Below are positions 747 to 29,500 of a stretch of 64,000 nt of DNA, in pieces. The notes beneath the pieces are model-generated. The model was not told the DNA's origin. It did no database searches and was given only the letters and a program-made list of their open reading frames with translations. This DNA is from a virus (lineage: Duplodnaviria; Caudoviricetes): the IMG/VR virus record IMGVR_UViG_3300027533_000013, positions 32,001 through 96,000 of that record; one strand, written 5' to 3'. A program made the translations under genes and the position numbers. The first letter of the stretch is position 1, and each line of letters opens with the position of its first letter.

Positions 747-2612
747 ATGCTCAAGTTGATTGGCGACCCGGTCCAGAAATCTGAACACCCCGAGCACAAG
801 ATAACCTTCATCCAGAAGGTGATTAAGGGTGAGACGTGGCTGGTGATGGCACACAGTGCCGTCGAGCTAGAGGACGAATGGTCCAGCCTCTACTTCACGT
901 CAGGCAGTCAGAACAACCTGTTCCTGATGCCGCCTTTCGAGCCGAATGTCTTGCTCAACCTTGTCCAGACCAACAATGTCCTGAACCAGTGCATCGAAGC
1001 GATGGAGGTGAACATCGATGGCACAGGGCATGAATTTGTCCCGGTGGATGAAGGGAAGGACATCGATAAGAAGGAAGAGAAGATCGCCAAGGCGTTCTTT
1101 GATGAGCCGTACCCGAACATCTCCATGGTCACCATCCGGCGCAAGTTGCGGCGGCAGATGGAGTCTGTAGGGTATGGGTTTATTGAAGTGCTTCGGAACA
1201 TGGCCGAGGACGTGGTGGGTCTTCGCAGTGTGGAGACGGCCCACATCCGGATGGTGAAACTAGACAAGCCCATCCAAGTCAAGAAGAAGGTGCAGCGGGA
1301 TGGCACAGAAGTCGAGCTACTGATCTGGGAACGTGAGCGTCGTTTTGCACAGACCGTCGCCCTGAAACAGCAAGTGTACTATCGGGAATTCGGAACCACC
1401 CGTCATATTAACCGTGACACTGGGGATTGGGAAGAAGAAGGCAAGAAGATCCCGCCTGAAAAGCGTGGGTCGGAGTTGCTCTGTCTGGGTATTAACCCCG
1501 ACGTGACCACTCCGTACTGGTTGCCACGATGGATTAACCAGTTACCATCAGTCATTGGCTCCAGAGCCGCCGAGGAACAGAACCTCCAGTTCTTGGATGC
1601 TGGTGGCCTGCCCCCAGCCATTGTGTTCATTCAGGGTGGCACACTCATCAAGGACACGTCCGACCAACTTCGCATGTATTTGTCGGGCCTCAACAAGAAC
1701 AAGAACCGGGCGGTGGTGGTCGAGGTCCAGTCATCGTCAGGTTCACTTGATGCGGCTGGCAAGGTCGATGTGAAGGTGGAGCGTTTCGGTTCTGCCCAGT
1801 CTCAGGATGCGATGTATACCCAGTATGATGAGTCCACTAAGGAGCACATCCGTATTGGCTTCAGACTCCCACCCCTGTTTCTGGGTTATGCGTCAGACTA
1901 CAACTTCGCCACCGCACAAGTGAGCTACATGGTGGCCGAGGCGCAGGTCTTTCTGCCAGAGCGTGCTGAGTTTGACGAGATGATCAACAAGACCATCATG
2001 AAGGAGCTAAAACTCAAGACGCTCCTGTTCAAGTCGAAGCCCATCACGCTGAAGGATGTGGAGACGCAGTTGAAAGCTCTTGAATTGTCGGCGGCACTGG
2101 CCACACGCGAGAGCTACCTGAAGGAAATCAACACAGTCAGTAGCATGGCACTGGAACTGGCTGAAGTGCCTGCTCAGGGTGTTGGTCCCGACAACGTGCC
2201 ACTCAAGAATACGCCTACGGCTGATGAACTGGATTCGGGTAAGTTGCCTGCATCCATGACGGAAGTGAAGCCGGGTGTGAAGCCAGAACCCAAGGAAACC
2301 ATCGAAGAAATGGGGAAGAAGGAAGAAGTCAAGTCCATGGCCCGAGCAAAGGCCAAGGCCATGTATACCTTCAAGGAGCGGAAGGCGGCAGGCGATCTAC
2401 TTGCGTTGACGCAGGACTATGCCATGTATCAGGGTCTGATGCCCACACTGGCACAGAAGCAGGAATTGACCGCTGAGCGTGCTGAGGAAATCAATGCTGA
2501 GGTCGAGTCGTTGCACCCCGAAGACCTGAGAGCGTTTAATAGCTTACTGGCTATGGTGGTGTTTGGGTCCGATGATGCGGACCTGTCGTCCATCGTTGCG
2601 GCGTCGAGGTAA
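747..2612 (+). CDS. phage portal protein (PBSX/XkdE-like)
   Basis: 621 aa; G.G.IEVLRN, YW.PRW, EEQNLQFLDAGG.P, IRIGFRLPPLFLG..DYNFATA motifs typical of portals; first gene of the head module. Confidence 0.9.
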   Translation: MLKLIGDPVQKSEHPEHKITFIQKVIKGETWLVMAHSAVELEDEWSSLYFTSGSQNNLFLMPPFEPNVLLNLVQTNNVLNQCIEAMEVNIDGTGHEFVPVDEGKDIDKKEEKIAKAFFDEPYPNISMVTIRRKLRRQMESVGYGFIEVLRNMAEDVVGLRSVETAHIRMVKLDKPIQVKKKVQRDGTEVELLIWERERRFAQTVALKQQVYYREFGTTRHINRDTGDWEEEGKKIPPEKRGSELLCLGINPDVTTPYWLPRWINQLPSVIGSRAAEEQNLQFLDAGGLPPAIVFIQGGTLIKDTSDQLRMYLSGLNKNKNRAVVVEVQSSSGSLDAAGKVDVKVERFGSAQSQDAMYTQYDESTKEHIRIGFRLPPLFLGYASDYNFATAQVSYMVAEAQVFLPERAEFDEMINKTIMKELKLKTLLFKSKPITLKDVETQLKALELSAALATRESYLKEINTVSSMALELAEVPAQGVGPDNVPLKNTPTADELDSGKLPASMTEVKPGVKPEPKETIEEMGKKEEVKSMARAKAKAMYTFKERKAAGDLLALTQDYAMYQGLMPTLAQKQELTAERAEEINAEVESLHPEDLRAFNSLLAMVVFGSDDADLSSIVAASR

Positions 2613-2614: not shown

Positions 2615-3715
2615 ATGGACTACGCCCGTATTCTCAAGTGGAGTCCTAACCAGTTGCGAAACCCCGCAGGGTCACCCGAGGGAGGACGATGGGCGAAGGG
2701 TCTTACCCCACAGGGGGAACGAGATCGATGGCATGGGAAGGATCAGGCGAAGGGTCGGAGACTTGGTACAACTGAGGCTGCTAGGACCATAGAATTTCAG
2801 AGGAATGAAGCTCCCACGTTTCCCAAGGGTACGAGCACTCAGCAACGTGAGTACATTGCAGGGCTGTCTCCGAAGGCGCAGCGACGTATTCGGGACGCTG
2901 AAAATAAAGTCATACAGGATGCAGCACTGGCCGAGATGAAAGCCAATATGGCGGTGTCAAAGTCCCCGCCACTGGATCGGACTCCGTCTGGTGAACACAG
3001 GAATACGCTCAGGACGCCCATCGTAGAACACTCAGAACACACACGGGAGTTGGGCGGCGGCATCAATGAATCCTTGGTGGTGGAAATTGATGGCAAAGAG
3101 TTTGTGTTCAAGCCGGTTGAGGGAGAAAAACATGGCGGGAGTGGTGAGGCGTCACTCGCAGAACGTGAAGTGATCGCATCTCGCATGGATGACGAACTGG
3201 GGTTCGACTTGGTGCCCATGACGGTGATGGGTGAAGTCGAAATCTCGGCCCCTAAATATCCAGAATATGACGAGACGCCTGTGAAAAGGATAGGCTCACT
3301 CCAAGAGTTTCAGGCAGGCGCAAGGAATTATGGCGTGGCGGATGTGAGTGGTCTGTCACGAAAAGATATCGGGAACATGGCGGTGCTCGATGCCCTTCTG
3401 GGAAATACTGACCGGCATACCGGTAATGCCATGGTGAAAGGTAATCAGTTAATTGCCATTGACCATGGTTACACGATGAGTGAAGTACGCGGCACCAACA
3501 GTTTAGCGGTCGATAATCTCAGACGAGATGATTTACCCACGAAATATCAGGGCGAATTAGCGGAGCGCATTGAGAAGATGGATGTAGCCCGTGTGCTTGA
3601 TGGGTCACATATTGGGAAGGCGGAACGAGCGTCCTTTGAGCGCCGGAGAAAAATCGTCATCAACCAGTTGCGTAAGGGAGAAATCCACCTGATTGGTGGA
3701 GCGTTATATGCGTGA
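2615..3715 (+). CDS. PI3/4-kinase/HipA-like kinase effector 1 with N-terminal tag
   Basis: GGGINES, VFKP..GE, REVIA, LGFDLVPMT, GSLQ, DALLGNTDRHTGN, AIDHG; N-terminus YARILKWSPNQLRNPAGSPEGGRW. Confidence 0.8.
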   Translation: MDYARILKWSPNQLRNPAGSPEGGRWAKGLTPQGERDRWHGKDQAKGRRLGTTEAARTIEFQRNEAPTFPKGTSTQQREYIAGLSPKAQRRIRDAENKVIQDAALAEMKANMAVSKSPPLDRTPSGEHRNTLRTPIVEHSEHTRELGGGINESLVVEIDGKEFVFKPVEGEKHGGSGEASLAEREVIASRMDDELGFDLVPMTVMGEVEISAPKYPEYDETPVKRIGSLQEFQAGARNYGVADVSGLSRKDIGNMAVLDALLGNTDRHTGNAMVKGNQLIAIDHGYTMSEVRGTNSLAVDNLRRDDLPTKYQGELAERIEKMDVARVLDGSHIGKAERASFERRRKIVINQLRKGEIHLIGGALYA

Positions 3716-3977
3716 ACTCACCATCTATAACTACAGCATGAAGCCCGAAGAAGTCTTGGGTAAGGTACGGCTGGTGGAGGGTGAAGTCACCATCACTGGA
3801 TTCCCACCACGGATGATGGCCGAGCTACAGGCAGGCATGCCTGATGCGAACACCGGCACCCGCATCATGCCGGATCAGGGCGTGGTGTTTTTCGAAGCGG
3901 TGCTGAATCGGTATACCGGAGCGTATGTCCGAGCCGTGGAGCGGAGCATGGCGGATGTATTGAAGTCCCATGGCTAA
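3708..3977 (+). CDS. putative immunity protein for kinase 1
   Basis: Overlaps the kinase stop; MRELTIYNYSMKPEEVLGKVRLVEG resembles ORFs 8151 and 9623; ends MADVLKSHG. Confidence 0.6.
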   Translation: MRELTIYNYSMKPEEVLGKVRLVEGEVTITGFPPRMMAELQAGMPDANTGTRIMPDQGVVFFEAVLNRYTGAYVRAVERSMADVLKSHG

Positions 3978-4452
3978 ATCCTTCACCGACGTGCTCAAGT
4001 GGGATGAGCATAAGCATCCCAGAGATAAACATGGGTTGTTCACGATGGGGACAGGCCCATTTGGGCACACGCCTGATGACCCCAAAAAAATCGTGCAGGT
4101 CTATGGGCTATCAGACTTTCCAGAGGATGCCCCGCCAGATCCCTTGGAGCCCAAGTATCAGACCGAGGAGAGAGCCGAGCAGGCTGAGCGGCGAAGCCAG
4201 CGAATTCATCTGACCCAAGAAAGTGATCCCAAGCTCCCACCTATGGGGTCGTTGACCACGAATACCGCCGCCAAGCAGCGGGGTATTGAGCGGCGGAAGA
4301 AGCGGAAGGAAAAAGCCGCACGGATGGCCGAAGCCAGACGAAAAGAAGGTGGCGTCGTCGGAGCGAAGCAGAGAGCCCTAGATTTCCGCATGGCGCAAGG
4401 CCGCGCACAGCAGAAAATTATCCGAGCTATCCGAGAGCGTAAAGACGACTAG
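3970..4452 (+). CDS. tagged basic internal head protein, function unknown
   Basis: N-terminus SFTDVLKWDEHKHPRDKHGLF; K/R-rich C-terminus. Confidence 0.6.
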   Translation: MAKSFTDVLKWDEHKHPRDKHGLFTMGTGPFGHTPDDPKKIVQVYGLSDFPEDAPPDPLEPKYQTEERAEQAERRSQRIHLTQESDPKLPPMGSLTTNTAAKQRGIERRKKRKEKAARMAEARRKEGGVVGAKQRALDFRMAQGRAQQKIIRAIRERKDD

Positions 4453-4454
4453 CC

Positions 4455-6092
4455 GTGGCGAAGACTGTAGACCTGAGAACGTATATCGCACTGGAGAGGG
4501 CGTTTCTTAGGCGTCTTCTGCGGACGTGGCGTATTCAGTCGGCTCCCATTTACCAGAAAATCACGCAAGCCTGTCTCGACCATAAATGGGATGAAGCCCG
4601 TCGATTGGTGCCCGATCTGGATATGGCTGAAGTCGGCACGGAAAACAAAGAGTGGATTACCTACATGCTCCTGTCGTGTGGCGTGTTCGGGGCCAACATG
4701 GTGGCGAGAGGTAAACCCTCCTTTGTGGGCGTGGGCACTTTCGATACCTTCCTGAAGCAGACCACCAACAACATGCTCCAGTATCTGGAGCACAACGCCA
4801 CCGCACAGATTCAGAAGGATGCTCTGCAATTGATTGCAGAGGATGAGGCCAAGACCAAAGCCATCAAGTTCGATGAGAGTAAACACCCACGAGATGGTAA
4901 AGGTAGGTTCGCTTACCATGGCACGTCCAATGAGTTGGCCGAGAAGATTCTGAAGGAAGGACTCAAGCCTCTCAGCGAGATGGATCGGAGTTCTCCCATA
5001 GGGAAAGGGTTTGCATCCACGAGTGAGAAAGTGGCGCTGAGTTATGCGGCGATGGCGTCGGATGATTCGGTGGACACTATTACAGTGTTTGTGTTCAAGC
5101 CAGAAGCCAGTCGTTACTTCCAGCCTGCCAACAAGCATGCTTTTGGGCCATCGGGTTCGTGGGCACAAGCGCGTAGCACAGAGATGTCGAGCACAGAGAC
5201 TGTGCCACCGGAATTGATTCACGAGGTGCGTCAGTATCGACTGGCTGATGTGGTCGAGGCACTAGGGCCGCAAGGTGGGAAACAGTATGCAGATTGGGAG
5301 TCTCCACTGGAGGATGTAGATCCAGTGAAGGTGGTCCGAAAAGAAGATCAGGTCATTTATGTGGCCTTTTTGACCACGTCTGGGCCTGTGTTAAAATGGG
5401 ATGCGTCGAAACACCCACGGGAACCCAAGGGAAGCGCCATAGGAGGGCAGTTCACCGAGGGAACCGTGCAGGAGGGTCCGGACTTTACCCGAGTGGCCAT
5501 CACGAGTCAGCGGCCAGAGGGTGATCCGGGGCACCAAGCGAACAAAGAGGTCTTCCAGCACATGCACGAGTTCCAGAGCCGTCTGGAGGCCCTACCGGGG
5601 GTTACCAGAGTCTCTGTGAAGCCGGGAGTCGGTGGGTGGGATGGTGGGTCGGAGTCCATGTGGCAAGTGTTCTACCGGGGCAACGGAGCCGCCAGACGGT
5701 TGGTGGCGCAGACGGCTAAGACGTTCAATCAGGATGCGGTGCTGGTCCTGAAGAAGTGTACGGGCAGTAATTGCCAGCCTGCGGTAGAATTGTCGTTCGC
5801 GGGTGGGGTGTCTCCGGTCGTCAGGGAAAAGGTCCATGCGGTGCTGGTGAAGAACGGCATCCAAGGGTGGACGTGGATGAAGCGGGGCGGAAAGACCCTA
5901 CTCCGGATGGTGTCGGTGCCCCAGTGGGGTGGCGTGGCTGAGAAGCACCAGAAGGCGACAGCCGCCGTCAGTCAGAAGTTACGAGAGGATGGGCTAGAGA
6001 ACCATCGTAGCGTGCATAAAGTGGCCGTATCGGTCATGGAGCGCGAGGGAGACAACAGCTATGACCGAATCATCGGACGAACAGGCACGTAA
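4455..6092 (+). CDS. MuF N-terminal half fused to an ADP-ribosyltransferase-like domain and a possible SAM-lyase-like domain
   Basis: Helical N-terminus; tag AIKFDESKHPRDGKGRF; ART motifs YHGTS..ILKEGLKP..FASTS..ALSYA..VPPELI; second tag VLKWDASKHPREPKGSAIGGQF; third domain GGWDGGSESMWQV..FNQDAVL. Confidence 0.6.
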   Translation: MAKTVDLRTYIALERAFLRRLLRTWRIQSAPIYQKITQACLDHKWDEARRLVPDLDMAEVGTENKEWITYMLLSCGVFGANMVARGKPSFVGVGTFDTFLKQTTNNMLQYLEHNATAQIQKDALQLIAEDEAKTKAIKFDESKHPRDGKGRFAYHGTSNELAEKILKEGLKPLSEMDRSSPIGKGFASTSEKVALSYAAMASDDSVDTITVFVFKPEASRYFQPANKHAFGPSGSWAQARSTEMSSTETVPPELIHEVRQYRLADVVEALGPQGGKQYADWESPLEDVDPVKVVRKEDQVIYVAFLTTSGPVLKWDASKHPREPKGSAIGGQFTEGTVQEGPDFTRVAITSQRPEGDPGHQANKEVFQHMHEFQSRLEALPGVTRVSVKPGVGGWDGGSESMWQVFYRGNGAARRLVAQTAKTFNQDAVLVLKKCTGSNCQPAVELSFAGGVSPVVREKVHAVLVKNGIQGWTWMKRGGKTLLRMVSVPQWGGVAEKHQKATAAVSQKLREDGLENHRSVHKVAVSVMEREGDNSYDRIIGRTGT

Positions 6093-6231
6093 GGAGTTGC
6101 GGGAAGCGTTGGCTCAGGAGCAGGCCACAGGTGAACCAGTGGATGACTCGTGGACCAATGACCTACCCAGTGATCCACTCCCCGAGGATGACGAGGACGT
6201 GTCGGCCACGTTCGTGAAGAAGCATACGTAG
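6061..6231 (+). CDS. small acidic protein (56 aa), candidate immunity/partner
   Basis: MTESSDEQARKELREAL...EDDEDVSATFVKKHT; GAGGGA RBS; overlaps the end of 4455..6092; too short for the ORF track. Confidence 0.5.
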   Translation: MTESSDEQARKELREALAQEQATGEPVDDSWTNDLPSDPLPEDDEDVSATFVKKHT

Positions 6232-6237
6232 GACACC

Positions 6238-8094
6238 ATGCCACCACTTACCCGGCAATTGATTGCAACTATCAAGTCTATGGTGCAGGGCTATGCCCAC
6301 GTCTTGAAGTGGAATCGCAACCAGCCGCGTGGCCCGAAGGGGTCAGCCACGGGTGGGCAGTGGATCAGTCAAGGGAGTCATGGGACCGGAGCGGCCAGCG
6401 CAATCGATGATAAATACGGCACGGCACCGGGGATGGAACGCTACGCCACCCATGGGGATCGTGGCGCAGGCTTTTCCACCATGGATCGAGCACGGGCTAT
6501 CGCAGGCCACACGCGGACACCCGACCCATCCTTCAAGCCTGTTCTGTTGAACGTCAAAGAAGGTGGCCGAGGATTTGTGAATCGTCCTCGTGGAGTGGGT
6601 GTTCCCGAACCACCACCGCCTGATCCACATCAGGAAGTCATTCAGGCCCTGAAGACCGACCGAGCGACAGACAGCCGCCCACTGGGGAATGCAGGCAATG
6701 CGAATGCCTCATGTGTGGTGACGTTGGTGGATGACAAGGGGGAGACCATCGAAGCCGTCTATAAACCCGAACGTGGTGAATCGTGGAGTTTGCGTTTTGC
6801 GAACCATGACATCAAGAAGATGGTCACCAACAAGGACTTTTCGTTGGCGGCTCGTGAAACCTTTGCGTATGAGGTGGATTCGGCACTGAAGCTGGAAATC
6901 GTGCCTGAAACCGTGCTCCGTGAGGTCGTAGACGAAACTAACATCGATATCAACACCAAGGCCAAAGGCGGAATGAACAGTGGTGATGGGCAGGGATACG
7001 ATTCAGACCAAGCCCGAGAGGATTATCGAGACTATCAGGAAAATGCCGAAGAAGACGCCAGAGAAAATGCCTATGAGGAAGCTGGCGACCAGATGGCTGA
7101 CCTATACCATGAGGCACAAAAAGAGCATGTTTCTGATATCCAAGAACGTGCCAAAGAGGTACAGGAAATCTGGGATGAGGAATATGAGGCGTTCAGAGAT
7201 CAGGATGCCCATGGAACACGTTCCGCCATGTTGGAACATCCCACGTTGCCCATGGGGTCTAAGGAACCCTTTGAGCGCAAGCCGGATGAAGGCAAACTGA
7301 ATCCCATCGAGTTTCTGGATGAAGCAAACGTCGATGTCACGGACTCTATGAACGAGGCCGAGGAAAACAAGGTCCGAGAACTTATCCGAGCGAAATTGAA
7401 GGACGGCTACAGCGGGTTCGATGAAGTCGATGAAGATGACGCGGAAGAACATCTGGACCGGGATAAATTCATCGAAGACCATGCGGACACCGAGGCCAGA
7501 ATCATTGACAGTATCGTAGCGAAAAACGTCCAGTCCTATACCGAGTGGCGTCACGACCATGGGTATAACACGTCAGGCACTGCTCCGAGCGGCAGTGGGA
7601 GTGGCAGTGGCCCTGATATGAATCCTGATGCGCCCCATCCTCAAGGGGGGTCGTTTCAGCACTACCGCAGTGATGCACGGAAAGACGGATACCTCAGTGC
7701 CAGTGGTGGAGCCAAGTTGGCGGTGCTGGACTACATGATCGGCACCATGGATCGTCACCCGAACAATTTGATGTACGACGGAACGGAACCTGTGGCTATC
7801 GACAACGGCTACAGTATGCCTGCGGTGCCTGACGGTGATCCGCCCGATGCTTTCACCTTCCGGTCGCATGGCGCGAGGGATTGGGCTAGTTCCGGCACAA
7901 TACCAGACGCCACCCGAACTGAGATACTCGATTCCATGTCGAAGACGAATTGGCAGGCCGTGATGGACCGCCACCCGAACATGAATGCACTGGAGCGGAA
8001 GGCATTTCTGGGCCGTGTCGAGAAGATGAAGACGGCGTTGGGCACTCCGGATGGCCTGAAAAACCTGTGGAGCGGTTTGAACAATATGTGGTAA
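6238..8094 (+). CDS. PI3/4-kinase/HipA-like kinase effector 2 with a large acidic insertion
   Basis: Tag GYAHVLKWNRNQPRGPKGSATGGQW; VYKPERGE, RETFAY, IVPETVLRE, PHPQGGS, LDYMIGTMDRHPNN, AIDNGYS. Confidence 0.8.
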   Translation: MPPLTRQLIATIKSMVQGYAHVLKWNRNQPRGPKGSATGGQWISQGSHGTGAASAIDDKYGTAPGMERYATHGDRGAGFSTMDRARAIAGHTRTPDPSFKPVLLNVKEGGRGFVNRPRGVGVPEPPPPDPHQEVIQALKTDRATDSRPLGNAGNANASCVVTLVDDKGETIEAVYKPERGESWSLRFANHDIKKMVTNKDFSLAARETFAYEVDSALKLEIVPETVLREVVDETNIDINTKAKGGMNSGDGQGYDSDQAREDYRDYQENAEEDARENAYEEAGDQMADLYHEAQKEHVSDIQERAKEVQEIWDEEYEAFRDQDAHGTRSAMLEHPTLPMGSKEPFERKPDEGKLNPIEFLDEANVDVTDSMNEAEENKVRELIRAKLKDGYSGFDEVDEDDAEEHLDRDKFIEDHADTEARIIDSIVAKNVQSYTEWRHDHGYNTSGTAPSGSGSGSGPDMNPDAPHPQGGSFQHYRSDARKDGYLSASGGAKLAVLDYMIGTMDRHPNNLMYDGTEPVAIDNGYSMPAVPDGDPPDAFTFRSHGARDWASSGTIPDATRTEILDSMSKTNWQAVMDRHPNMNALERKAFLGRVEKMKTALGTPDGLKNLWSGLNNMW

Positions 8095-8100
8095 CAGTAA

Positions 8101-8129
8101 TTGACAAATTGTTCAAATTGTGATACAGT
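8101..8129 (+). promoter_or_regulatory. sigma70-like promoter for the putative immunity gene 8151
   Basis: TTGACA-17-TACAGT with TG extended -10. Confidence 0.7.
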
Positions 8130-8150
8130 AATGGGTGGAGGATTCTAGTT

Positions 8151-8378
8151 ATGCACACCGAGATTTGGGATCATACGGGGGGAAGGTCGAGGGTGATGGC
8201 CATCGTCCGAGTGGATGGTGGAAAGCTCTCGATTGAAGAAAAAGAACCCATGCCGCCATCCTATCACAAGATGATCGAGATGACGCAGGCACGGATGCAC
8301 GGAGAACGAGCGTTTCTACGGCAGTTGGAAGTGGAATTTTCGGGGTCATACATCACGGCGACGTTCAAGAAAGACTGA
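8151..8378 (+). CDS. putative immunity protein for kinase 2
   Basis: GGAGG RBS; MHTEIWDHTGGRSRVMAIVRVDGGKL...FSGSYITA resembles ORFs 3708 and 9623. Confidence 0.6.
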   Translation: MHTEIWDHTGGRSRVMAIVRVDGGKLSIEEKEPMPPSYHKMIEMTQARMHGERAFLRQLEVEFSGSYITATFKKD

Positions 8379-8380
8379 CC

Positions 8381-9583
8381 ATGCTGATCTTCCAGCGGAA
8401 GCCTGTGCAATCAATTGCATACGTCTCCATCCTGAAGTGGGATCGGAACCAGCCCCGTGTCCCGAAAGGGTCACCAGAGAGTGGACGATGGACGCAGGGT
8501 GGTGTCAGTCAGGGTCTCGCCGCCACCACCATGGCCGGTCGAACGCCCAGAACGTCTACGTTCAAGCCGCCTGAGTATGGCTTTGGCAGTACGGAAGATC
8601 GTCGGATGGAAGCAGATAGGGCAAAAGCCGCAGGGTTTGCCACGATCATGAACGCCCCCATGGGCACGGGGTTTGCGAACCCACCACGTATCACCGGGCA
8701 ATCTTCGATGGTGAGGCGGTTGACGACGCCATCGAAAGCCCCGGTAGTATCGGCGGCACCAACTGGTTCGTCATTGAATTCGATGAGGACTGGCAACATC
8801 GCAGATTCTGAGGAAATCAATCCGGGGACACACGCCAATGAAACGTACAAAGTGACGTTGGAGGATGGGACCGTTGCCGCATTGAAGGCTGAATCAGGTG
8901 AACGCTGGGCCGCAGCCTTTTGGAATGACGATATTTCAAACTACGTCATCAACCGGGATCTGTCGCTGGGTGAGAGAGAAGCCATTGCCTTTGAAGTCTC
9001 AGAGGCGTTAGGACTGGATCTGGTGCCGGAGACGGTCCTCCGAGAACACATTGATGTTGTTAGTACCGGGCAACCTTTTGAGGGAGTGAACATCATGAAT
9101 GATGAGGCACCCCATCCACATGGAGGTAGTCTCACGAAGTGGGTGCCGGGTATTGATTCCGATGGTCAGAAAGCGACTCCACAAGAAATCCGAAGACTGG
9201 CAGTATTGGATTACGCTATGGGGCAGATGGATCGGCATCCCAACAATGTGTCCTTCGACGCTAATGGCAAGCTCCTCGCCATGGACAATGGTTACAGTCT
9301 TCCGGCTCCCATCTATGGTCATGATGAATTCACTTTCCGGTCGGCCACCACAAGAACGTGGAGGGAGTCAGCTAGTGACGACTTTCCAGAGGATGAACGG
9401 AAGCAAATGGCCGATGCGTTAGATAGGACGGACTGGACAGCGTTTGCTGATCGTCATTCGGGCATGAGCAGTCGAGAACGTGAAGCGTTTTTGGGTCGCA
9501 TTGAGAATCTGAAAGAAGCCATGAAGACCACCACGGGCTTGAAGGAACTGTGGAAGAACCAGACCCTGTATATGGACAATTGA
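8381..9583 (+). CDS. PI3/4-kinase/HipA-like kinase effector 3
   Basis: Tag AYVSILKWDRNQPRVPKGSPESGRW; ALKAESGE, REAIAF, LVPETVLRE, LDYAMGQMDRHPNN, AMDNGYS; close paralog of 6238..8094. Confidence 0.8.
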   Translation: MLIFQRKPVQSIAYVSILKWDRNQPRVPKGSPESGRWTQGGVSQGLAATTMAGRTPRTSTFKPPEYGFGSTEDRRMEADRAKAAGFATIMNAPMGTGFANPPRITGQSSMVRRLTTPSKAPVVSAAPTGSSLNSMRTGNIADSEEINPGTHANETYKVTLEDGTVAALKAESGERWAAAFWNDDISNYVINRDLSLGEREAIAFEVSEALGLDLVPETVLREHIDVVSTGQPFEGVNIMNDEAPHPHGGSLTKWVPGIDSDGQKATPQEIRRLAVLDYAMGQMDRHPNNVSFDANGKLLAMDNGYSLPAPIYGHDEFTFRSATTRTWRESASDDFPEDERKQMADALDRTDWTAFADRHSGMSSREREAFLGRIENLKEAMKTTTGLKELWKNQTLYMDN

Positions 9584-9601
9584 CAAATTATCTGATAGAC
9601 T
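9573..9601 (+). promoter_or_regulatory. sigma70-like promoter for the putative immunity gene 9623
   Basis: TGGACA-17-TAGACT with TG extension; a TTGACA also lies at 9580. Confidence 0.55.
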
Positions 9602-9622
9602 ACAGGGGCATGGAGGTGCTAG

Positions 9623-9868
9623 TTGTACGCAGAACTTATCAATTATTCGATGGACCCGCCTAAAGTGATCCGGACCATCCGGATCGTGGATGGGAAGCTC
9701 GTCCAGACGGGTGACATGTCTCCGGAGAAGAGACGGCATCTGGAGCAGGAATATCATCTGTTCAAGACCAAGCTGAACGGCAGCGATAAGGATTTCTTGG
9801 AGAATCGGTTGGACGTGGTATTTGCGAGTAACACGTATTACAAGCCGAAGTTTCACCCCGAGGAGTAA
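9623..9868 (+). CDS. putative immunity protein for kinase 3
   Basis: GGAGG RBS, TTG start; MYAELINYSMDPPKVIRTIRIVDGKL resembles ORF 3708. Confidence 0.6.
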   Translation: MYAELINYSMDPPKVIRTIRIVDGKLVQTGDMSPEKRRHLEQEYHLFKTKLNGSDKDFLENRLDVVFASNTYYKPKFHPEE

Positions 9869-9873: not shown

Positions 9874-11649
9874 GTGCTGCAATCGATTGCAGGATATGCG
9901 GCGGTGCTGAAGGGTGGCACCTATAGCTATGGGAATACCCAGATCCCTATTGCTCCTACCAGTGCAGCCGCGCTTAGTCTGAACATGGCCCGAGACGCCA
10001 TTCAGGATGACCATCTGGAGGGCGCAGGAAAGGACGTGGACCCCAACCACGTCACGGTGCGGTATGGCCTGTTGAACGAGAACCTCGACGCCCTGAGAGC
10101 CTTTCTTGCCAGTCAGAAGCCTTTTGAGGCGCGAGTCGAGGGGGTGGAGTTATTCCCTGCCTCAGAACACTCGGATGGAGCCGTGCCCGTGGTGGCGAGG
10201 ATCGTGTCACCCGAGTTGCACGCTATCGAGGCTGAGATTGGAAATTACGCAGATTTCAAGGAAAAGAGCTTCCCGGTTTACAAACCGCACTGCACATTGG
10301 CGTATTGTAAACCGGAGATTGCCGAGCGGTATCAAGAACTATTTGTCTATGGTTCGTTTGTGGTGCAGAGCATCACCATCAGCCATGCGTCAGGTGTGCA
10401 GGAAACCATCCCGTTCGGTATAACGAATAAGTTCGATGTAACGAAGAAAGATCCGGTCAGCGGACGTTATGTCACGCCGTTTGTGTCGTTCGATAAGCAA
10501 GGCGATGAGCAGCTACGTATGATTACCAGTCTCAACGCCAGCCGCTTGGCGACGTGGGGATTTACGGCTGAGGCCGAAGTGCTGGGGATGGCCCGGTATC
10601 GTCTGACCGCCGTGCTCGATGGTCGGACCAGTAAGTTCTGCCGCATGATTGATGGCCATATTTTTGATGTGGCTGATGCGCGTGAGAAGGTGATTGAAGC
10701 CCTGAACGTGCAAGACCCCAACGACCTTCGCGTCGTCCAACCATGGCCCAAGCAGGACAAAGCATCGATGGCCATGTACAGCGAGATGAATGCCCAAGAA
10801 CTGACTGACCGAGGGCTACACATCCCACCCTACCACCCGCACTGCCGCACGTTGTGCCGGTCGGTGGAGTCGAGCAAGGGGAAGACCACCGAGGTCACGG
10901 CCACGGTGCCTGATGGGACTGAGGTCTTTCAGCCTGTCACAGCGGCTGACCTAGCGGAGATCGGTGTGACAGCGACTCCTGAACAGGTGGCCGAGTGGAA
11001 CGCCAACATCGGCATGTCTCCGGTCGAGTTGATGACCAAGCTCACTGGAGGGCGTCCCCAAGAGGTGATGACACGAGGCGTTGGTTCGAAGCCGGTGGAG
11101 TTTCATCCCTCTGGGGATATCGGACTGAACGCCCGAGGGGTCACGGATGGGGTGGAATTCAAGCTGGGGGCGATACTGGACCCATTCACGGGTATCTTCT
11201 ACTTGACCCGTGCGGAGTTGGCTGAGGGCACGCCAAAGGCCGAGGCCGCGTTCCTGAAGCGTATGTTCAGTGCCATGCTGGACATGGGGAAGAAGTCCAC
11301 GGCATCCTCGATTGCGCTCAGCGTGGCCGGTAATGCGGCATACTACGCCAAGCTGGGATTTCTGCCTGACGAGTTGGAATGGGATGCTCTGCGGACGTAT
11401 TCACTGGGAGAGTTGGAAGCAGGAGTGTTGCAGCCGATGATGGCATCGCTGGCCCCGGCTGATGCGTTGCTGGTGAAGCAGCTACTACAAGATGGGTCAC
11501 CATCGGCCTTAGTTGCTCTGACCGAGCTACCGTTCACCTACGCAGGCAAGACCATCGGTGAGTGGATTCTCAGTGAGTCGTCAGGTATTTGGGCACTGGA
11601 TCTGGCCGATGATTTGATGGTAGCGCAGGCGAAAGCGTACCTCTCATGA
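9874..11649 (+). CDS. 2H phosphoesterase (Acb1-like) + MuF/SPP1 gp7 C-terminal half + GNAT-like domain
   Basis: Two HxT motifs (HVTVRYG at 10048, PHCTLAY at 10285); MuF motifs AVLDGRTSKFCRMIDG and PPYHPHCRT; C-terminal AAYYAKLGF. Confidence 0.75.
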   Translation: MLQSIAGYAAVLKGGTYSYGNTQIPIAPTSAAALSLNMARDAIQDDHLEGAGKDVDPNHVTVRYGLLNENLDALRAFLASQKPFEARVEGVELFPASEHSDGAVPVVARIVSPELHAIEAEIGNYADFKEKSFPVYKPHCTLAYCKPEIAERYQELFVYGSFVVQSITISHASGVQETIPFGITNKFDVTKKDPVSGRYVTPFVSFDKQGDEQLRMITSLNASRLATWGFTAEAEVLGMARYRLTAVLDGRTSKFCRMIDGHIFDVADAREKVIEALNVQDPNDLRVVQPWPKQDKASMAMYSEMNAQELTDRGLHIPPYHPHCRTLCRSVESSKGKTTEVTATVPDGTEVFQPVTAADLAEIGVTATPEQVAEWNANIGMSPVELMTKLTGGRPQEVMTRGVGSKPVEFHPSGDIGLNARGVTDGVEFKLGAILDPFTGIFYLTRAELAEGTPKAEAAFLKRMFSAMLDMGKKSTASSIALSVAGNAAYYAKLGFLPDELEWDALRTYSLGELEAGVLQPMMASLAPADALLVKQLLQDGSPSALVALTELPFTYAGKTIGEWILSESSGIWALDLADDLMVAQAKAYLS

Positions 11650-11871: not shown

Positions 11872-12978
11872 ATGCCCCTGCATACGAGTCGATTCGTGTC
11901 CCGGTATGGACTCACACATGCCGCAGAGCCATCCAAACCCAAACTCCCCTTTGAATTAGTCCTGAAGTTCAACAAGTGCCACGCAGACAATTCCGGCCAA
12001 TTCTGTGACACGAGTGGTGGCACAGGTGGTAAAGAAAGTGGCGGCATAGGCGGTAAAGAAAAAGAGACTGCGAACTTCAAGAAAACTGTCCCGAAGGACG
12101 GTGAATATCCGGTAGGCACAGAACAAGACCCCATCATCAGGGCGTCAGTGAAACGTCGGTACATGGCGGGGGAAATTGAACTGGCCGACGAGCAAAAAGA
12201 ATTCTTTGGGATCGGGCCGGAAGTGAAGTTCAATTCCAAAGCGGCCAAGGTGACGAAACCCTCCGCGAAGCCATCCGACGTGAAGTCTGAGGACGGGCCG
12301 ACGCAAGTGTTCTTGGATGCCAGTACGCCGGAAGGTATCACCACGGCGCTGAAGGCCATGGGATGGAAAGATAAGAGCAAGGTTACGAACCGTGACGAAC
12401 TTTTCAAAATCGCGGAAAACAATGGGAAGATTGCGGAGAAAGGGCGTAAGCTCATTCTTGAGGCGTTGGAAAGTAGCCCCCGTGGGAAGGGAAAGGTCAA
12501 GGTAACGAAGGCGAGTGGGATTGATCAGAAGACGGCGGATAAGCTACAAGCCAACGTCAATCTCTTGCTGCACCCGACCATCCTGAAGCAGTTGAAGTCC
12601 AAGAGTACGAATCTGACGAGGGGCAGGTCGAGTGGAGATGCCCATTACTCACATTCTATTGAGGGTCAGATTACGTTTGGGCATGGGATGAATAAAAACG
12701 ATCAAGAAGCAATCTATGTTCATGAATTCGGGCATAGAATTGAAGTGTCAGTCAAAGGGTTGTTGGCGAAGGCAACCAAGGCCCGAGACAAAGCCGTCAG
12801 TGAGAACGAACCGTTGGTCAATGAATACTCCGAGAAAGTGTACGAGCATATTAAGGGCACAGAATATGTGTCGTCTGGATACGAGCACTACTTCCGCGAT
12901 CCCATTTCCTTTGCCGCCAAAGCCCCGAAACATTTTACGTTCATTCATCGGCTGGTGACGCGAGGGGAGTTGGTATAA
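11872..12978 (+). CDS. tagged zincin-like metallopeptidase effector
   Basis: Tag FELVLKFNKCHADNSGQFC; HEFGH at 12721 and downstream EYVSSGYEHYF. Confidence 0.7.
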   Translation: MPLHTSRFVSRYGLTHAAEPSKPKLPFELVLKFNKCHADNSGQFCDTSGGTGGKESGGIGGKEKETANFKKTVPKDGEYPVGTEQDPIIRASVKRRYMAGEIELADEQKEFFGIGPEVKFNSKAAKVTKPSAKPSDVKSEDGPTQVFLDASTPEGITTALKAMGWKDKSKVTNRDELFKIAENNGKIAEKGRKLILEALESSPRGKGKVKVTKASGIDQKTADKLQANVNLLLHPTILKQLKSKSTNLTRGRSSGDAHYSHSIEGQITFGHGMNKNDQEAIYVHEFGHRIEVSVKGLLAKATKARDKAVSENEPLVNEYSEKVYEHIKGTEYVSSGYEHYFRDPISFAAKAPKHFTFIHRLVTRGELV

Positions 12979-13244
12979 TGCAGGCGGTTATTAAGGTCGA
13001 GGGTGTCGAGGCGACATTCGATGGAGAGCGATGGGAGTGTCCCGATGCGACGTTAGCGGCGTTCCTGAATGCGTTTCGGTGGATGGGTTCTCGCCATAGC
13101 CAGTATGGTAGTGCTGGAAGCCATGCGGTGGCGGTGGCTGAAGAAATAGGAGCCGAAGTCGTTTCGGTGGAAGATACACCCACGGATAATGTCGATATCG
13201 TGAAGGGGTTGGGGGAGTCCGACGATGAGTCGGATGAGGAGTAG
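12978..13244 (+). CDS. small acidic protein, candidate immunity for the metallopeptidase
   Basis: TAATG overlap with the peptidase gene; 88 aa, acidic. Confidence 0.5.
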   Translation: MQAVIKVEGVEATFDGERWECPDATLAAFLNAFRWMGSRHSQYGSAGSHAVAVAEEIGAEVVSVEDTPTDNVDIVKGLGESDDESDEE

Positions 13245-14657: not shown

Positions 14658-14673
14658 CTGATTGGGGTGTAGA

Positions 14674-15207
14674 ATGTCCTTGGTACTGAAGTCCGAAGAA
14701 CAGCACATTGTCATGGGCGTTGCTCCGGGCTATTGGGTGTCGAATGATGGCCGAGTGTGGTCCACACGTCCATTGAACGGGCAGGGGCCATTATTGCCGT
14801 GGGAACAGCGCCGAGAGATGAAACCGATTGTTCAGCACAATCAATATCGAACGGTGGTGATTGATAGAAAGACCGTGGCAGTTCATGCACTTGTACTAAC
14901 GGCGTTTGTAGGCCCACGACCAGCCGGGAAGCAATGTCGCCATTTGGATGGTGACAAGTCGAATAACCGGCGAGACAATTTGATCTGGGGTACTTGTGTT
15001 GAGCAGTCAGAAGATCGGGCCAAACACGGCACTAAGTTAGTAGGGTCGAAGATAGGCACGGCGAAGTTGACTGAAGCGCAAGTGAAAGAAGCGCGGAGTA
15101 TGCGACCCACTTTTCCGCTTGATTACATTGCCAAGAAATTTGGAGTGACTAAGACCTGTATTTGGCATGCTGTTTCTGGTTCCGGCTCCAATTGGAGACA
15201 CGTATGA
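14674..15207 (+). mobile_element. HNH homing endonuclease (NUMOD4/HNH type) fused to the former 5' end of the prohead protease gene
   Basis: YWVSNDGRVWS, VHALVLTAFVGPRP, CRHLDGDKSNNRRDNLIWGT, AKLTE; N-terminus MSLVLKSEEQHIVMG resembles the protease start. Confidence 0.85.
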
Positions 15208-15798: not shown

Positions 15799-16965
15799 AT
15801 GCCGATTTTTCGGACCAAGTTGAAACAGTTGCGTGATGCGGATGTGCGGTTTATTTCGTTGGTAGATCGAGCCGCCACACGTATTCCGTTCCGAGTGTTG
15901 AAGCGTGAGAAGGAGAACGAGATGGGTATTGATCTGACGCGAGTATTCAAGTCGGACGGAAAAGAGGTGGCGAAGCCTTTTGTGTCGGCAATCGTGGTCT
16001 TCGCCCAGAAAAACGAGGACGCCGCGAAACAAGTGCGGGACGCCATCGAGAAGCACGGGTTCCGCATTGATCGCGTTCAGAAAGCCGATGGCGACGAGAC
16101 GCTGGTCTTCGCCCAGACGGATGCTCCGAAAGAAGTCCAGCTTGTGCGACTGAGCGATCAGTCGTTGGTATCCGTCGCCAACTTTCAGATTCCCTCGGGA
16201 TGGATGGGTGACCAGATCGAGGAGCACGGGTTCTTCCCCGATCTGAAGCTGGCCACTCAGAATCTGTACGACGAGATGCTGAAGGTTGCCAAGTCGGACA
16301 CACCACAGGACCATGCTCAGGCCGCGTTGACCAGCTACGCCCAGTACATGGAGCAGATGATCACGCTCCCGGTGGAAGCGTTCCAGTTGGACGAGGCCAT
16401 TGCTGAAATCGTCAAGAAGTGCTCCTGCGAAGACAAGAAAGAGGACGAGGAGCCGGTGAAGGAAGACGTGAAGACGGAAGACGTGGTCAAGGCCGACAAA
16501 AAGAGTCCCAAGTTGCCGCCGAAACTGGCCGGTGAGTCGGAGGCCGAGAGGAAGAAGCGTCTCAAGTCCCATCCGCCGTCTGAGATGGCTCCGGCTGATG
16601 AGGAAGATGACCAGAAGGGTCCACCGGAAGAAGCCAGCCCCGAAGAGGATGAAACCAAGAAGGCTGACACCGGCATTCAGGACATTCTCGGCGCGTTGAA
16701 GGCACTGAACGATAGCACCACGGCGCAGTTCACCACGCTGACGACCAAGTTGGAAGGTGTCGTCACCGAACAGGCCAGCCAGAAGAAAGTGCTTGACGAC
16801 GTGGTACAGAAAGCTGACACTTTGGGAGCGACGTTGAAGGGTACGGTGGTTGCCCCCGTTGTCTCCGAAGATCGCCCCGCAGGACCAGCCCGTATGCGGG
16901 TGCAGAAGGACGATGATCCTCGGACGGGCAATTTCGACACCGCGTTTCTGCGTCGTCGTCGGTAA
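15799..16965 (+). CDS. capsid scaffolding protein
   Basis: Lies between protease and MCP; N-terminal VRFISLVDRAA motif; acidic coiled-coil; many VxKAD/VxKSD sites. Confidence 0.7.
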   Translation: MPIFRTKLKQLRDADVRFISLVDRAATRIPFRVLKREKENEMGIDLTRVFKSDGKEVAKPFVSAIVVFAQKNEDAAKQVRDAIEKHGFRIDRVQKADGDETLVFAQTDAPKEVQLVRLSDQSLVSVANFQIPSGWMGDQIEEHGFFPDLKLATQNLYDEMLKVAKSDTPQDHAQAALTSYAQYMEQMITLPVEAFQLDEAIAEIVKKCSCEDKKEDEEPVKEDVKTEDVVKADKKSPKLPPKLAGESEAERKKRLKSHPPSEMAPADEEDDQKGPPEEASPEEDETKKADTGIQDILGALKALNDSTTAQFTTLTTKLEGVVTEQASQKKVLDDVVQKADTLGATLKGTVVAPVVSEDRPAGPARMRVQKDDDPRTGNFDTAFLRRRR

Positions 16966-17006: not shown

Positions 17007-17948
17007 ATGACGAATCAGGAAGTTATCCAAAAAGCGGATATGGCGCTTGCGGATCTGGCGACGGCTGGCAAGCTGAATCCGGAGCAGACCGACCGCTTCA
17101 TCCGTACGCTCATTGACCAGCCCACCCTGTTGGCTTCCATCCGGACGGTCGCCATGGGCGCACCGGAGATGAAGATCAACAAGATCGGCTTCGGCTCCCG
17201 AGTGCTGCGACCTGCGATCAGCGCCACCGCCATGGCTGATTCGGATCGCGTGAAGCCGGATCTTGGACAGGTGAACTTGGCGACGAAAGAAGTCATCGCT
17301 GAAGTCCATCTGCCCTACGACGTGATCGAGGACAACATCGAGAAGGGCAACATCAACGTGCCGTTGCAGACCGGCGCGGGTGGTCTGCACCAGACCATCG
17401 TGGACCTGTTGGCCGAGCGTGCCGCGCTCGACTTGGAAGAGCTTGGCATTCAGGGTGACACCGCAAACCTTGCGGACGCCTATCTGGCTCTTCAGGACGG
17501 CTATCTGAAGCTGGCCACCGCGAACGTGACCAACGTGGGTGGCGTGTTCGACAAGGCGGCGGTCAAAGCCGCACTGAAGACCATGCCGACCCGGTATCTC
17601 CGGAACCGCAGTGCCATGTCGCACTTCGTGTCCGTGGACAACGAGACGGAAATCCGTGACCAGTACGGTGCTCGTCAGACCGCACTCGGTGACGCACAGG
17701 TGCAGGGTCTGCTCCCGGTCTACATCTACGGTTCCAAGGTGACCCCGGTCGCCCTGATGCCGGGACCGCAGGGCCTGTTCACCGATCCGATGAATCTCAT
17801 CTTCGGGATTCAGCGGAACATCATGATCGAGTACGACAAGGACATTCGTGCCCGTGTGTTCATCATCGTGCTGACCTGCCGCATCGACTTCGCCATCGAG
17901 GAAGTCAACGCGGTGGTCAAGTACACGGGCATTACCGGAAGCCGGTAG
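17007..17948 (+). CDS. major capsid protein (HK97 fold, XkdG-like)
   Basis: GKLNPEQTDRFI, EDNIE, DLEELGIQGD, DGYLK, TDPMNLIFG; strong AGGAG RBS; followed by a terminator. Confidence 0.9.
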   Translation: MTNQEVIQKADMALADLATAGKLNPEQTDRFIRTLIDQPTLLASIRTVAMGAPEMKINKIGFGSRVLRPAISATAMADSDRVKPDLGQVNLATKEVIAEVHLPYDVIEDNIEKGNINVPLQTGAGGLHQTIVDLLAERAALDLEELGIQGDTANLADAYLALQDGYLKLATANVTNVGGVFDKAAVKAALKTMPTRYLRNRSAMSHFVSVDNETEIRDQYGARQTALGDAQVQGLLPVYIYGSKVTPVALMPGPQGLFTDPMNLIFGIQRNIMIEYDKDIRARVFIIVLTCRIDFAIEEVNAVVKYTGITGSR

Positions 17949-26593: not shown

Positions 26594-29500
26594 ATGAGTA
26601 ACGGCTCGTCCTCCGCGATGGAACTGAAAGTTCTGATCAGTGTGTTGCAGAATGGCACGGCTCTGCAAACGATGCTGGGTCAGGTCAATCAACTTTCTCA
26701 AGCTCTTTCGGCACTCCAACTCAAAGCAGCCACGGCAGGCGTAGCAGCGGGGGGTATTGGTGGGGGCACTGGGAACACCGCAGCGGCAATAGCCGCAGCC
26801 AATGCCTTAGCGGCAGCGTCAGGTAATGCAGCGGCTGGAATTACTGGGGCAGGGGCGGCGGCAGCGGCTGCGGCTCCTAAGATGTTGACACTTGAACAAG
26901 CCGTCAATAAAACGTGGAGAGCTATACAGTTTTTAGCTGGAGGGTTTTTAGCTTACCAGAGTGTTCGGTTTATAAAAAACATTGCAGATGTTGCTGCAAG
27001 AACAGAAGTTCTGAATACCGTATTGCACGTGGTGGCCCTCAATGCCGGGTATACGGAACAACAGATCGATAAAGTGTCCCGAGGTGTCCAGCGTTTGGGC
27101 ATCACTGCACAGTCAGCCAATCAATCGCTGACGCAGTTCCTGCAAGCCGGGTTGAAAATCGAATTCGCAGAACAATTGGCCCGAGCGTCACAGGATTTGG
27201 CCGTTGTTTCTGGGATGGACTCGTCGCAGACCTTCCAACGGTTGCTGGTCAACATTCAGCAGTTGGATACGTTGGGCCTGCGGCATATGGGCATCATTGT
27301 TTCCCGCACAGAAGCCGAAGCGAAGTTCGCAAATTCGTTGAAGACGTCAGTCAATGCTCTGTCACAGCGGCAAAAACAGGAATCCTTGATGATCGCTGTC
27401 ATCGAGAAGGCCCGTGGGCTGGAAGGAGCCTACGAAGCCGCGATGGGGAACGTCGGCAAGCAGTTGACGTCGTTGACTCGGTATACACAAGACTTGCGGA
27501 GTGAAATTGGTAAGCATCTGTTGCCAGCGTATTCCGCCATCATCTCGGAACTGTCGTTGTTTTTGTCCAAGATGCAGGATCTGGCGATTGCTAGTAGTAC
27601 CAATATGGATTGGGCTGAAAGGCTAGCCACGGTTACACGAACACTGGCGCATTGGTTTTTTCAGGTTGTCGAAGTCATCATCAAGTACCGTCAAGCTATT
27701 TACACCTTGGTTGCCGCGTACGGAGCGTACTGGGCTATTGTGACGGGTCGAGCGATCTGGGCACATCTCATTACGGTCGTTACAACGCTGACGACGAGCG
27801 TGCTCAGTTCGGCTGAAGCTATTGTGAAAGCGACACGAGCGACCTACGCTTGGATTGCCGCGTTGCAATTGTTACGAGGTGCTCAAGCGACTAATGCTGT
27901 CACACAGACTGGGCAATTTCTGTTGTTTCCCATTGAAAAAGAAACTCGGTTGGTTACCGGTATTAAGTCGGTAGTGGGGTGGCTGAAGACACTCGGTCTG
28001 TGGTTACTTGAAGCCAGTCGAATTTCGTTGGTGCTACGTGCGGCATGGGCGGGTCTTGTTCCAATTGTTGCAGGATTGGGACTCCCATTGATTGGATGGA
28101 TCGCTGGCATAGTTGCGGCAGTAACAGCATTTGGAGCGTTTACCGTTGCTCTGGTGAAGTTCACATCGGTCGGAACGATGGTGTCTTCGGTCATCGATAA
28201 GCTCAGGAATGCTTTTAGTGCGCTGACGAGGATTGGTATTGGTGACAAGACATGGGAGGTGTTGACGAACGCGGCAAACACTTTTAGTGATTCCATCACG
28301 CAACTGAAGATCAATATGGAAGCTCTGTTCAGGGTAATGGAGCAACTGCCCGGTAATCCTGTCAATAAGGTGAAACTTGGGCTGTCCATTATTGATCTGG
28401 CGATAGACGTAGAAATCGCCAAAATCAAGAAATTGATCGAGTGGCTTGAAAAGCTCGGCATTATTAAGGTCAAGGCTCCAGCCCCCGGAGAACGTAGTGA
28501 GGAATCTCTACGGCTGGAGCAGCAACTGAATGATAAAACGGCTGAATTGGCAGAAGCCAAAGAAGCTGAGGAACTTGCCAAAACGGCATTCGGAGCGGCT
28601 AATAAAGCCGGTAAATATTCAGAAATCAAGCGCACCGAAGAAGAACTAAAGAAGTTGTCCGAGGAAGTGAAGAGGTTGCTCAAGCAACGGGACGACCTCG
28701 TTGAAAAAAGTAGACAAACCGATCCTGAAGCCTTAGCAGCATCGGAAGCCCATGCCAGACGGTCGAAGTTTGAACAAGATTTGAACACTCTTGTTTCAGC
28801 GTCGAATGACGCCAAGACGAAGTTGTTGAAGGTCAATATTCTAGATGGCCTTATCACGACGAAAGAATTTGACGAGAAGCGTGGGCAATTGAAAGTGATA
28901 CTTGATGCCCTCGATAAGCTCCGAACTAGCGCGGCTCGTGCGGCAGGTATGGGGCGTACTGGGGCAGATGGAAGATTTGTCGCGCCACCGGGACAACCCG
29001 GCCTTACAACTCTCTCTGATGATTTACGAGGATTACGTGATCAGGCTTTGGCTAGTATTGAAGGAGCCAAAGTCATGTCGGGTGCTCCAGGCCTCATTTC
29101 AGATTTGAAGGGTTTTGATGAGGAGATGGCGAGGATACGACGCACCGTTACGTTGACGCCCAAAGATGAACAGTTGTTGCAGAATTTGGAACAGGTAGCA
29201 CGTCTGAGGGCAGAAGAAGGTGAACGCTCCGTATTGGCTCCGCTGACTGCGATTCGTAAAGCACGTTTTGAGGCTGTTGAGAAACAGTTGAGGAGCAGTC
29301 TGGAAGAACAGTTAGATATCCAAAAGAATGCGAATGAACAAGCGGAGACGATCAATAAAGAGTCACTAGAGCGTGGGTTGCTGTCCGTTCAGGAGTACTA
29401 CAACCGACGACGTCGAGCAGCCAGCGATGCGTATGGCATCGAATTGATGTTGGCGACTCAGAACGTCGAGGCGATGAAACGGAGAGTCGTTCAAGTTCGT

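Follow-up and report, generated by a model that had tools for sequence, protein, structure and literature searches.

Arrays of effector genes in phage head modules, and small open reading frames (ORFs) that follow phage-borne toxins, are already known (PMC5512222, PMC5576092). We describe here a locus in a tailed phage (Caudoviricetes) that invites comparison with both: the window analyzed is a stretch of 64,000 nucleotides (nt), bases 32001-96000 of a 119,701-bp IMG/VR virus record (IMGVR_UViG_3300027533_000013) rated 100% complete, and its head module holds three predicted kinase genes (K1, K2, and K3), each directly followed by a gene for a small protein (S1, S2, and S3). Three features appear to be new: the family of S proteins, the link between these proteins and a clade of kinases resembling type II phosphatidylinositol 4-kinase (PI4KII) and Fam20, and a conserved early-class promoter at the kinase/S junction within a late operon.

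In the MuF toxins, a small ORF with no recognizable domain immediately downstream of the toxin is read as the immunity gene, and hardly any of these toxins occur outside temperate phages (Jamet et al., 2017, PMC5576092). The locus described here resembles them in that enzymatic effectors, presumed to be delivered by the virion, are encoded in the head module near MuF with a small ORF directly 3′. It differs in several ways: the kinases are separate genes marked by a shared leader or tag, and the MuF domain itself (in the gene at 9874-11649) stands behind a 2H phosphoesterase domain with no toxin fused to its C-terminus; the phage appears virulent; the partner gene has its own conserved promoter; and no kinase toxin domain appears in Jamet et al. 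(2017, PMC5576092).

Delivery together with the DNA has also been proposed for the polyvalent proteins of phages and conjugative elements (Iyer, Burroughs, Anand, de Souza, and Aravind, 2017, PMC5512222). In the portion of that paper drawn on here, their repertoire includes ART-like, 2H phosphoesterase, MuF, zincin-like peptidase, and kinase domains, much as in our array, and two relatives of the phage (L010 and L014) carry multi-domain versions of 1670-1779 amino acids (aa). In our window, the modules are instead mostly split into single tagged genes. The same portion describes the kinase as a domain of the Ser/Thr/Tyr-kinase superfamily that has lost its C-terminal subdomain, unlike the PI4KII/Fam20-like kinase with a full C-lobe seen here, and gives no dedicated small partner or internal promoter (PMC5512222).

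A third comparison is with HipBST, in which the antitoxin HipS binds the HipT kinase directly and thereby neutralizes it (PMC10627512, PMC9325769); HipS corresponds to a part of HipA (PMC10627512) that the core of the phage kinase lacks. Both systems have the same broad kinase fold (Z 9-10 to HipT and HipA), and in both the kinase adjoins a protein of at most ~100 aa made of a β-meander, helices, and a final strand. There are also differences. The phage kinase is closer to type II PI 4-kinase (Z 18), S aligns with HipS at only Z 4.1 with no Couple_hipA sequence signal, the kinase comes first (vs. the order hipB-hipS-hipT), there is no HipB and no helix-turn-helix gene in the array (the neighbors being cargo enzymes), and the setting is phage cargo rather than a chromosomal toxin-antitoxin module.

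Phage enzymes that modify host proteins at the very start of infection include T4 Alt, which is packaged in the capsid. The T7 protein kinase gp0.7, which disarms defenses by broad phosphorylation in the account drawn on here (PMC13645617), likewise modifies host proteins at the very start of infection; it differs from the kinases of our locus in being made early from the genome rather than packaged, in being unrelated in sequence, and in that the portion of that account used here names no separate inhibitor protein (PMC13645617).

Three kinases, each followed by a small gene

A preliminary description of this DNA, made from its letters alone, had pointed out three kinase genes with a small gene after each, and the ORFs are indeed as it gave them. 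All lie on the + strand. K1 (2615-3715; 366 aa) matches Pfam PI3_PI4_kinase (PF00454) at 5e-9 and 36.8 bits, K2 (6238-8094; 618 aa, with an acidic insert of ~200 aa) matches at 1e-7 and 32.5 bits, and K3 (8381-9583; 400 aa, without the insert) matches at 25.5 bits; the cut-off of this family is 27.1 bits, so K1 and K2 pass it and K3 falls narrowly under. K1, with the motifs DRHTGN and IDHGY, is the most diverged of the paralogues (~30% identity to K2 and K3). Across 16 family members, K169, D284, R285, H286, N289, D302, and G304 (K3 numbering) are invariant; these residues make up a conserved Lys, the catalytic loop DRHxxN, and the metal-binding D-x-G. The invariance of DRHxxN bears out the preliminary description; of its second motif, [AI]D[HN]G, the D-x-G is intact and the first position is too narrow, K3 reading M-D-N-G at the metal site. 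Judged by these alignments, the identification of K1-K3 as paralogous kinases with intact catalytic motifs holds.

The AlphaFold2 model of K3 (N-terminal 110 residues disordered; core with a predicted local distance difference test score, pLDDT, of 80-95) is a two-lobed kinase fold with a full C-lobe that matches the solved members. Its core aligns with PI4KII alpha at Z 18.3 (236 residues, root-mean-square deviation 3.4; Foldseek 3e-9), and its further neighbors are Fam20 (Z 12-14), Helicobacter pylori CtkA (11.1), actin-fragmin kinase (10.6), Legionella HipT (10.1), CotH (9.5), HipA (9.3, over HipA residues 146-437 only), and E. coli HipT (9.0). From its position in the N-lobe of the model, K169 would be the ATP-binding Lys. 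Each cassette is predicted to encode an active atypical kinase. A protein rather than a lipid substrate seems the likelier guess, since most of the bacterial and atypical neighbors (CtkA, CotH, HipA/T, actin-fragmin kinase, Fam20C) are protein kinases. PADLOC returned only marginal matches for K1.

The small genes are packed closely against their neighbors. S1 (3708-3977, + strand; 89 aa from ATG; E 2.6e-17 to the S-family profile) overlaps K1 by 8 nt (ATGCGTGA) and the start of the next gene by 8 nt, and is translationally coupled on both sides. S2 (8151-8378, + strand; 75 aa), whose ATG is preceded by GGAGG, stops 2 nt before K3. S3 (9623-9868, + strand; 81 aa) begins with TTG after a GGAGG, a start also used in database cluster P0021, and stops 5 nt before the gene that encodes the 2H phosphoesterase-MuF protein (2H-MuF). 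The view that these 75-89 aa products are related was sound: BLASTP joins S1 to S3 at 4e-6 and S2 to S3 at 4.5e-4. The genome holds exactly three K and three S genes, with each S directly after one kinase.

The S family is rare. A word-indexed search of 5.8 billion proteins found 23 clusters, and a search of 1.84 billion proteins found 87 cluster representatives at E ≤ 1e-3. Almost all members are stand-alone proteins of 70-90 aa, and all have a conserved C-terminal F-S-G-x-Y-x-R-A strand. Pfam identified no domain and no recurrent family across 71 members, in keeping with the earlier remark that the family was not a recognized one; further, there was no usable ESM Atlas match, and neither a PDB sequence profile nor PADLOC returned anything.

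The AlphaFold2 model of S2 has a pLDDT of 95.3 and the order β1-β2-β3-α1-α2-β4. Foldseek found nothing at E ≤ 0.001 in PDB or BFVD, and exhaustive alignment against 48,161 chains gave a best Z of 4.7, which is within noise for a search in which unrelated models typically reach a best Z of 7-8. Also within that noise are HipS twice (7ab3_B and 7vkb_B; Z 4.1, 63-66 residues), HipA residues 2-108 (Z 3.3), and RWD domains, and Pfam has no Couple_hipA match at E ≤ 10 in S1-S3 or in the 71 members. We regard the resemblance between the S and HipS folds as suggestive, a lead rather than evidence of membership. S is best described as an undescribed family with a confidently predicted small α/β fold and no clear structural relative.

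The kinase/S pair in related phages

A hidden Markov model built from S1, S2, and S3 identified the gene directly after the kinase in 8 further loci, and degenerate DNA patterns for the LPxxFSGSYxRA motif recovered no more than 7 viral loci that could be used and 4 from metagenomes. The related viral contigs each have a single K2-like kinase (575-611 aa, 45-51% identical to K2/K3), and an S homologue begins after a gap of 5-45 nt. This kinase-then-S order was found in six further loci of five lineages (L007, L008/L009, L010, L014, and L016) and also covers the L010-L013 and L016/L021 groups. S2 is the member closest to the S proteins of these relatives (56% identity to that of L007), which indicates that K2/S2 are the orthologues of their single pair; divergence is greater for K3/S3 and greatest for K1/S1. 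The identity matrices of the K and S proteins correlate at r 0.75, a value reached by 4 of 5040 permutations.

The informative point in these comparisons is that S has multiplied only together with a kinase. We regard the kinase/S pairing as genuine; the two genes have been duplicated together, and related phages keep the pair. S was not found in L015, which has a distant kinase of 292 aa, nor beside the distant kinase relatives in Nocardia, Nonomuraea, and Patescibacteria genomes.

A conserved putative promoter at the kinase/S junction

The preliminary description had also placed sigma70-like promoters before two of the small genes, and in sequence comparisons these hold up. The first (8101-8129, + strand) begins with TTGACAAATT and reads TTGACA, a 17-nt spacer, and a TG-extended TACAGT, followed by GGAGG and the ATG of S2; the second (9573-9601, + strand), before S3, reads TGGACA-17-TAGACT, again with TG before the -10. 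A plain consensus scan over 18 kb found 9 sites vs. 10.3 expected, so there was no enrichment. The genome has, in addition, a promoter class of its own, made up of TTGACAAA[TC], a 17-nt spacer, often a TG, and TAnnnT (TTGACAAAY-17-TGnTAnnnT), of which there are ~22 strong copies, nearly all on the + strand, in the early and replication arms, which span genome positions 2-27 kb and 78-119 kb (e.g., directly 5′ of the UvsX-like gene and other replication genes). On the + strand of window positions 1-46000, only three sites score at least 10.5 for this class, and two of them are the sites directly before S2 and S3.

The same kind of site stands at the junction in diverged relatives. L007 and L008 have no other such site in ~13 kb, and L010 has just one other; the L014 and L016 junctions have TGnTATAAT. 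In an alignment of 7 junctions, the TG and TA.A.T positions of the -10 are invariant, the spacers vary, TTGACAAAyT is common to 5 of the 7 (L014 and L016 differ), and the GGAGG Shine-Dalgarno is kept in most. In five diverged relatives, the kinase/S junction has a TG-extended -10, which in three of them is accompanied by a consensus -35. A sigma70-type site precedes two of the three S genes in the window, as well as S in every related phage that was examined. We read these junction sites as working promoters of the host type, in the early or middle class. Since they are of the same class as the promoters of the replication genes, S can presumably be made independently of, and before, the late head operon.

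Several features of these sites are worth recording. The S3 promoter overlaps a second TTGACAAATT at 9580, with the K3 stop codon inside its TTGACA; the junction at 9580-9606 resembles a duplicate of the S2 promoter in which the spacer is 2 nt shorter (TTGACAAATT-11-TACAGG), and a usable promoter (TGGACA-17-TAGACT) has been re-formed 7 nt upstream of the copied site. The -35 of the S promoter is embedded in a 5+1+5 inverted repeat, GACAA-N-TTGTC (window 8102-8112, and the L007, L008, and L010 junctions), which is not common to the other TTGACAAAY promoters. Its arms are kept in L007 and L008 (with a different center base in L008), and one arm base differs in the window S2 site and in L010; this repeat could be an operator. 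The third site scoring at least 10.5, at 5370-5397 (TTGACC-16-TG-TAAAAT), is within the ART-like gene, a few nt upstream of the second tag (~5400), where the second module of that gene begins; no in-frame start codon is evident near it.

A leader/tag shared by the kinases and their neighbors

A leader/tag of the form ..[LV]QS[IV]A..[VI]LK[WF]..[HQ]PR..G..[FW] starts or occurs within every large gene of the array: at the N-termini of K1 (in the form ..ILKW..NQ.R.P.GS..GG.W), K2, and K3, in the gene at 3970, twice in the ART-like protein (4455 and ~5400), and in the genes at 9874 and 11872. S1, S2, and S3 are without it, unlike the large genes beside them. In L010 and L014, the same motif punctuates the long proteins mentioned above, which contain PFIN, 2H, and MuF domains. 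Because the kinases have this leader/tag in common with their ART-like, 2H-MuF, and zincin neighbors, we infer that the capsid probably takes them up and that they enter the cell with the DNA.

The QS[IV]A codons make up a near-palindrome (TGCAATCAATTGCA). Its synonymous positions vary, which suggests that the constraint is on the protein. In a high-GC lineage (G001 and G003), a polyvalent protein is punctuated by three repeats of a variant tag, which in G001 reads SNDCH.PAGS..GGQFCS (L029 2066-3502).

What the small proteins might do

The reading we favor, tentatively and at somewhat short of even odds, is that S, untagged and cytoplasmic, binds and antagonizes its cognate kinase, and that the kinases are capsid cargo that strike host proteins at the onset of infection. 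The kinases would be packaged in the capsid, injected with the DNA, and act on host proteins as infection begins. S would stay in the cytoplasm, bind its cognate kinase, and hold it inactive, which would protect the cell while new kinase is made late for packaging; the early-class promoter would supply S soon after infection, limiting the injected kinase to a short pulse. The immunity role in this scheme is suggested by gene order, and we infer kinase toxicity, binding by S, and inhibition by S alike. A more elaborate version, in which S is a new, minimal HipS-like lid on a PI4KII/HipT-like kinase, supplied as an antidote from the first transcripts so that the kinase has a pulse of a few minutes, with three independently switchable pairs, strikes us as doubtful.

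A number of observations weigh against S as a dedicated kinase antagonist. The correlation between the K and S identities is for the most part what vertical co-inheritance would give for any two genes. Exchanging S2 and S3 lowers it only to 0.70, a difference (0.75 vs. 0.70) that does not separate the two possible pairings of these genes. In the high-GC G001/G003 lineage, the polyvalent protein directly follows the kinase and S lies 14 kb away, ahead of the terminase and a fusion of the portal protein with a 2H domain. The ART-like, 2H, and zincin enzymes of the array have no such partner. S1 lacks a promoter of its own, no + strand terminator was found between S2 and K3 or between S3 and 2H-MuF, and, given this and the gaps of 2 and 5 nt, the S2 and S3 transcripts should run on into K3 and 2H-MuF; these promoters would then also serve the next cargo gene, K3 included. 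The earlier proposal that immunity is expressed ahead of the kinase is thus supported by the early-class promoters of S2 and S3 and is weakened by the missing promoter of S1 and by the S2 promoter reading into K3. Lastly, four database proteins (P0056, P0082, P0086, and P0111) have S N-terminal to a tag and a following non-kinase cargo module, vs. no S-kinase fusion among the S database proteins, and S may on this account relate equally to the gene downstream. (The P0082 fusion has a DGHHR motif, ParB/Srx-like, and the P0056 fusion resembles the C-terminal half of the ART-like gene in the window.) The 2-nt gap between S2 and K3 also raised the pairing of S2 with K3, in an antitoxin-first order; we judged this less likely because the relatives with a single kinase have the order kinase, promoter, S, and then a non-kinase gene.

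It is unlikely, in our estimate, that S acts in the opposite sense, as a positive partner (like HipS or the N-subdomain of HipA) that completes, activates, or targets the kinase, so that the injected enzyme would be active or specific only once the early promoter makes S. The thought comes from the HipS and HipA 2-108 neighbors of the S2 model, from the alignment of the K3 core with HipT (Z 9-10) and with HipA 146-437 (without N-subdomain 1), and from a paper that describes HipS as no simple plug but an allosteric modulator (PMC10627512). However, a Z of 4 is under the noise level of 7-8 and is equaled by RWD and kinetochore domains, PI4KII, a far nearer match to the kinase, has no subdomain of this kind, the 71 members show no Couple_hipA signal, and HipS in HipBST is in any case an antitoxin.

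That the junction promoter serves instead an early downstream cargo or anti-defense gene (e.g., a 2H/Acb1-like one), with S simply leading that early operon, unrelated to the kinase and perhaps itself an independent anti-defense protein, seems to us quite unlikely. Three times in this genome S has been duplicated or acquired along with a kinase, and there is no S elsewhere in it, S1 is translationally coupled to K1, both of the S-bearing genomes that could be checked (G001 and G003) carry the kinase too, and it is hard to see the use of making early the MuF head protein of ~1700 aa (with PFIN and 2H phosphoesterase domains) that is the gene after S in L010 and L014. It is nevertheless true that a tagged cargo gene always follows S within 2-8 nt, and the missing terminators, the S-cargo fusions, and the unlinking of S from the kinase in G001 would all fit a tie to that gene. 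The fusions can be read in another way as well, with S helping assembly or packaging, or serving as a leader domain to be removed, so that the cargo stays loadable into the prohead, and not regulating an enzyme: S lies inside the head module between cargo genes, and in the four fusions it precedes the next tag, where processing would release it. We hold this to be very unlikely, as an early-class promoter is unexpected for a late factor and S accompanies only the kinases and not the ART-like, 2H, or zincin cargo.

Finally, S could be a prophage immunity protein, expressed in a lysogen to neutralize kinases injected by superinfecting kin phages. Such a role would suit the host-type promoters and follow the logic of the MuF polymorphic toxins of temperate phages (PMC5576092), and expression in a lysogen had been entertained in the preliminary description. 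We consider it scarcely credible. No tyrosine or serine recombinase (PF00589, PF00239), integrase, or resolvase was matched across the complete 119.7-kb genome, on which ground we rejected lysogeny and treat the phage as virulent, as it appears to be; the genome, at ~120 kb, has its own replication set, and the kinase relatives in bacterial genomes are distant and without S.

If S does neutralize the kinases, as in the antagonist reading that we prefer, the locus would clearly exemplify a virulent phage that has both virion-delivered enzymes and an early-transcribed antidote, which would amount to a built-in timer for a host-takeover or anti-defense activity. An unannotated family of ~87 clusters would gain a role as a kinase regulator, and the PI4KII/Fam20-like clade would join the phage effectors, beside the T7 kinase recently shown to disarm defenses. 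The conserved internal promoter makes the antidote idea directly testable.

Genome setting

The array belongs to a + strand morphogenesis block that runs from window position 747 to ~31,000. The block opens with the portal protein (747..2612; phrog_12, 4e-22), which marks the start of the head module, and includes a head-maturation-protease-like gene (15799-16965), a virion structural protein (17007-17948; 1e-96), and the tape measure (26594-30901). Beyond ~46 kb are replication genes for a DnaB-like helicase, a primase, a helicase, a UvsX-like recombinase, and an exonuclease. No match was found among GenBank phages, either by tblastn with K1 or by megablast with 12 kb.

From the portal toward the protease, the order of the array, all on the + strand, is K1, S1, a basic protein, the ART-like protein, K2, S2, K3, S3, 2H-MuF, and the zincin-like protein. 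The basic protein (3970-4452) is tagged and has 160 aa; the PARP/ART-like protein (4455-6092) has two tags; the 2H phosphoesterase fused to MuF (9874-11649) matches Pfam PF13563 at 1.5e-9 and PF04233; and the tagged zincin-like protein (11872-12978) was recognized by an HEFGH motif read from its translation. The modules are mostly single genes, with two modules each in the 2H-MuF and ART-like genes. An ORF at 12978-13244, 3′ of the zincin gene, was considered as a further S homologue and rejected, as it has no homology to the S family.

Between the cargo array and the protease-like gene, the head module also includes an HNH endonuclease (14662-15207; phrog_59, 4e-32). The 2H phosphoesterase domain in the window (9874-10420), fused ahead of MuF, gives a weak Pfam signal for Acb1 (anti-CBASS), and in G001 a 2H phosphoesterase/Acb1-like domain is fused to the C-terminus of the portal protein (L025 7325-9970).

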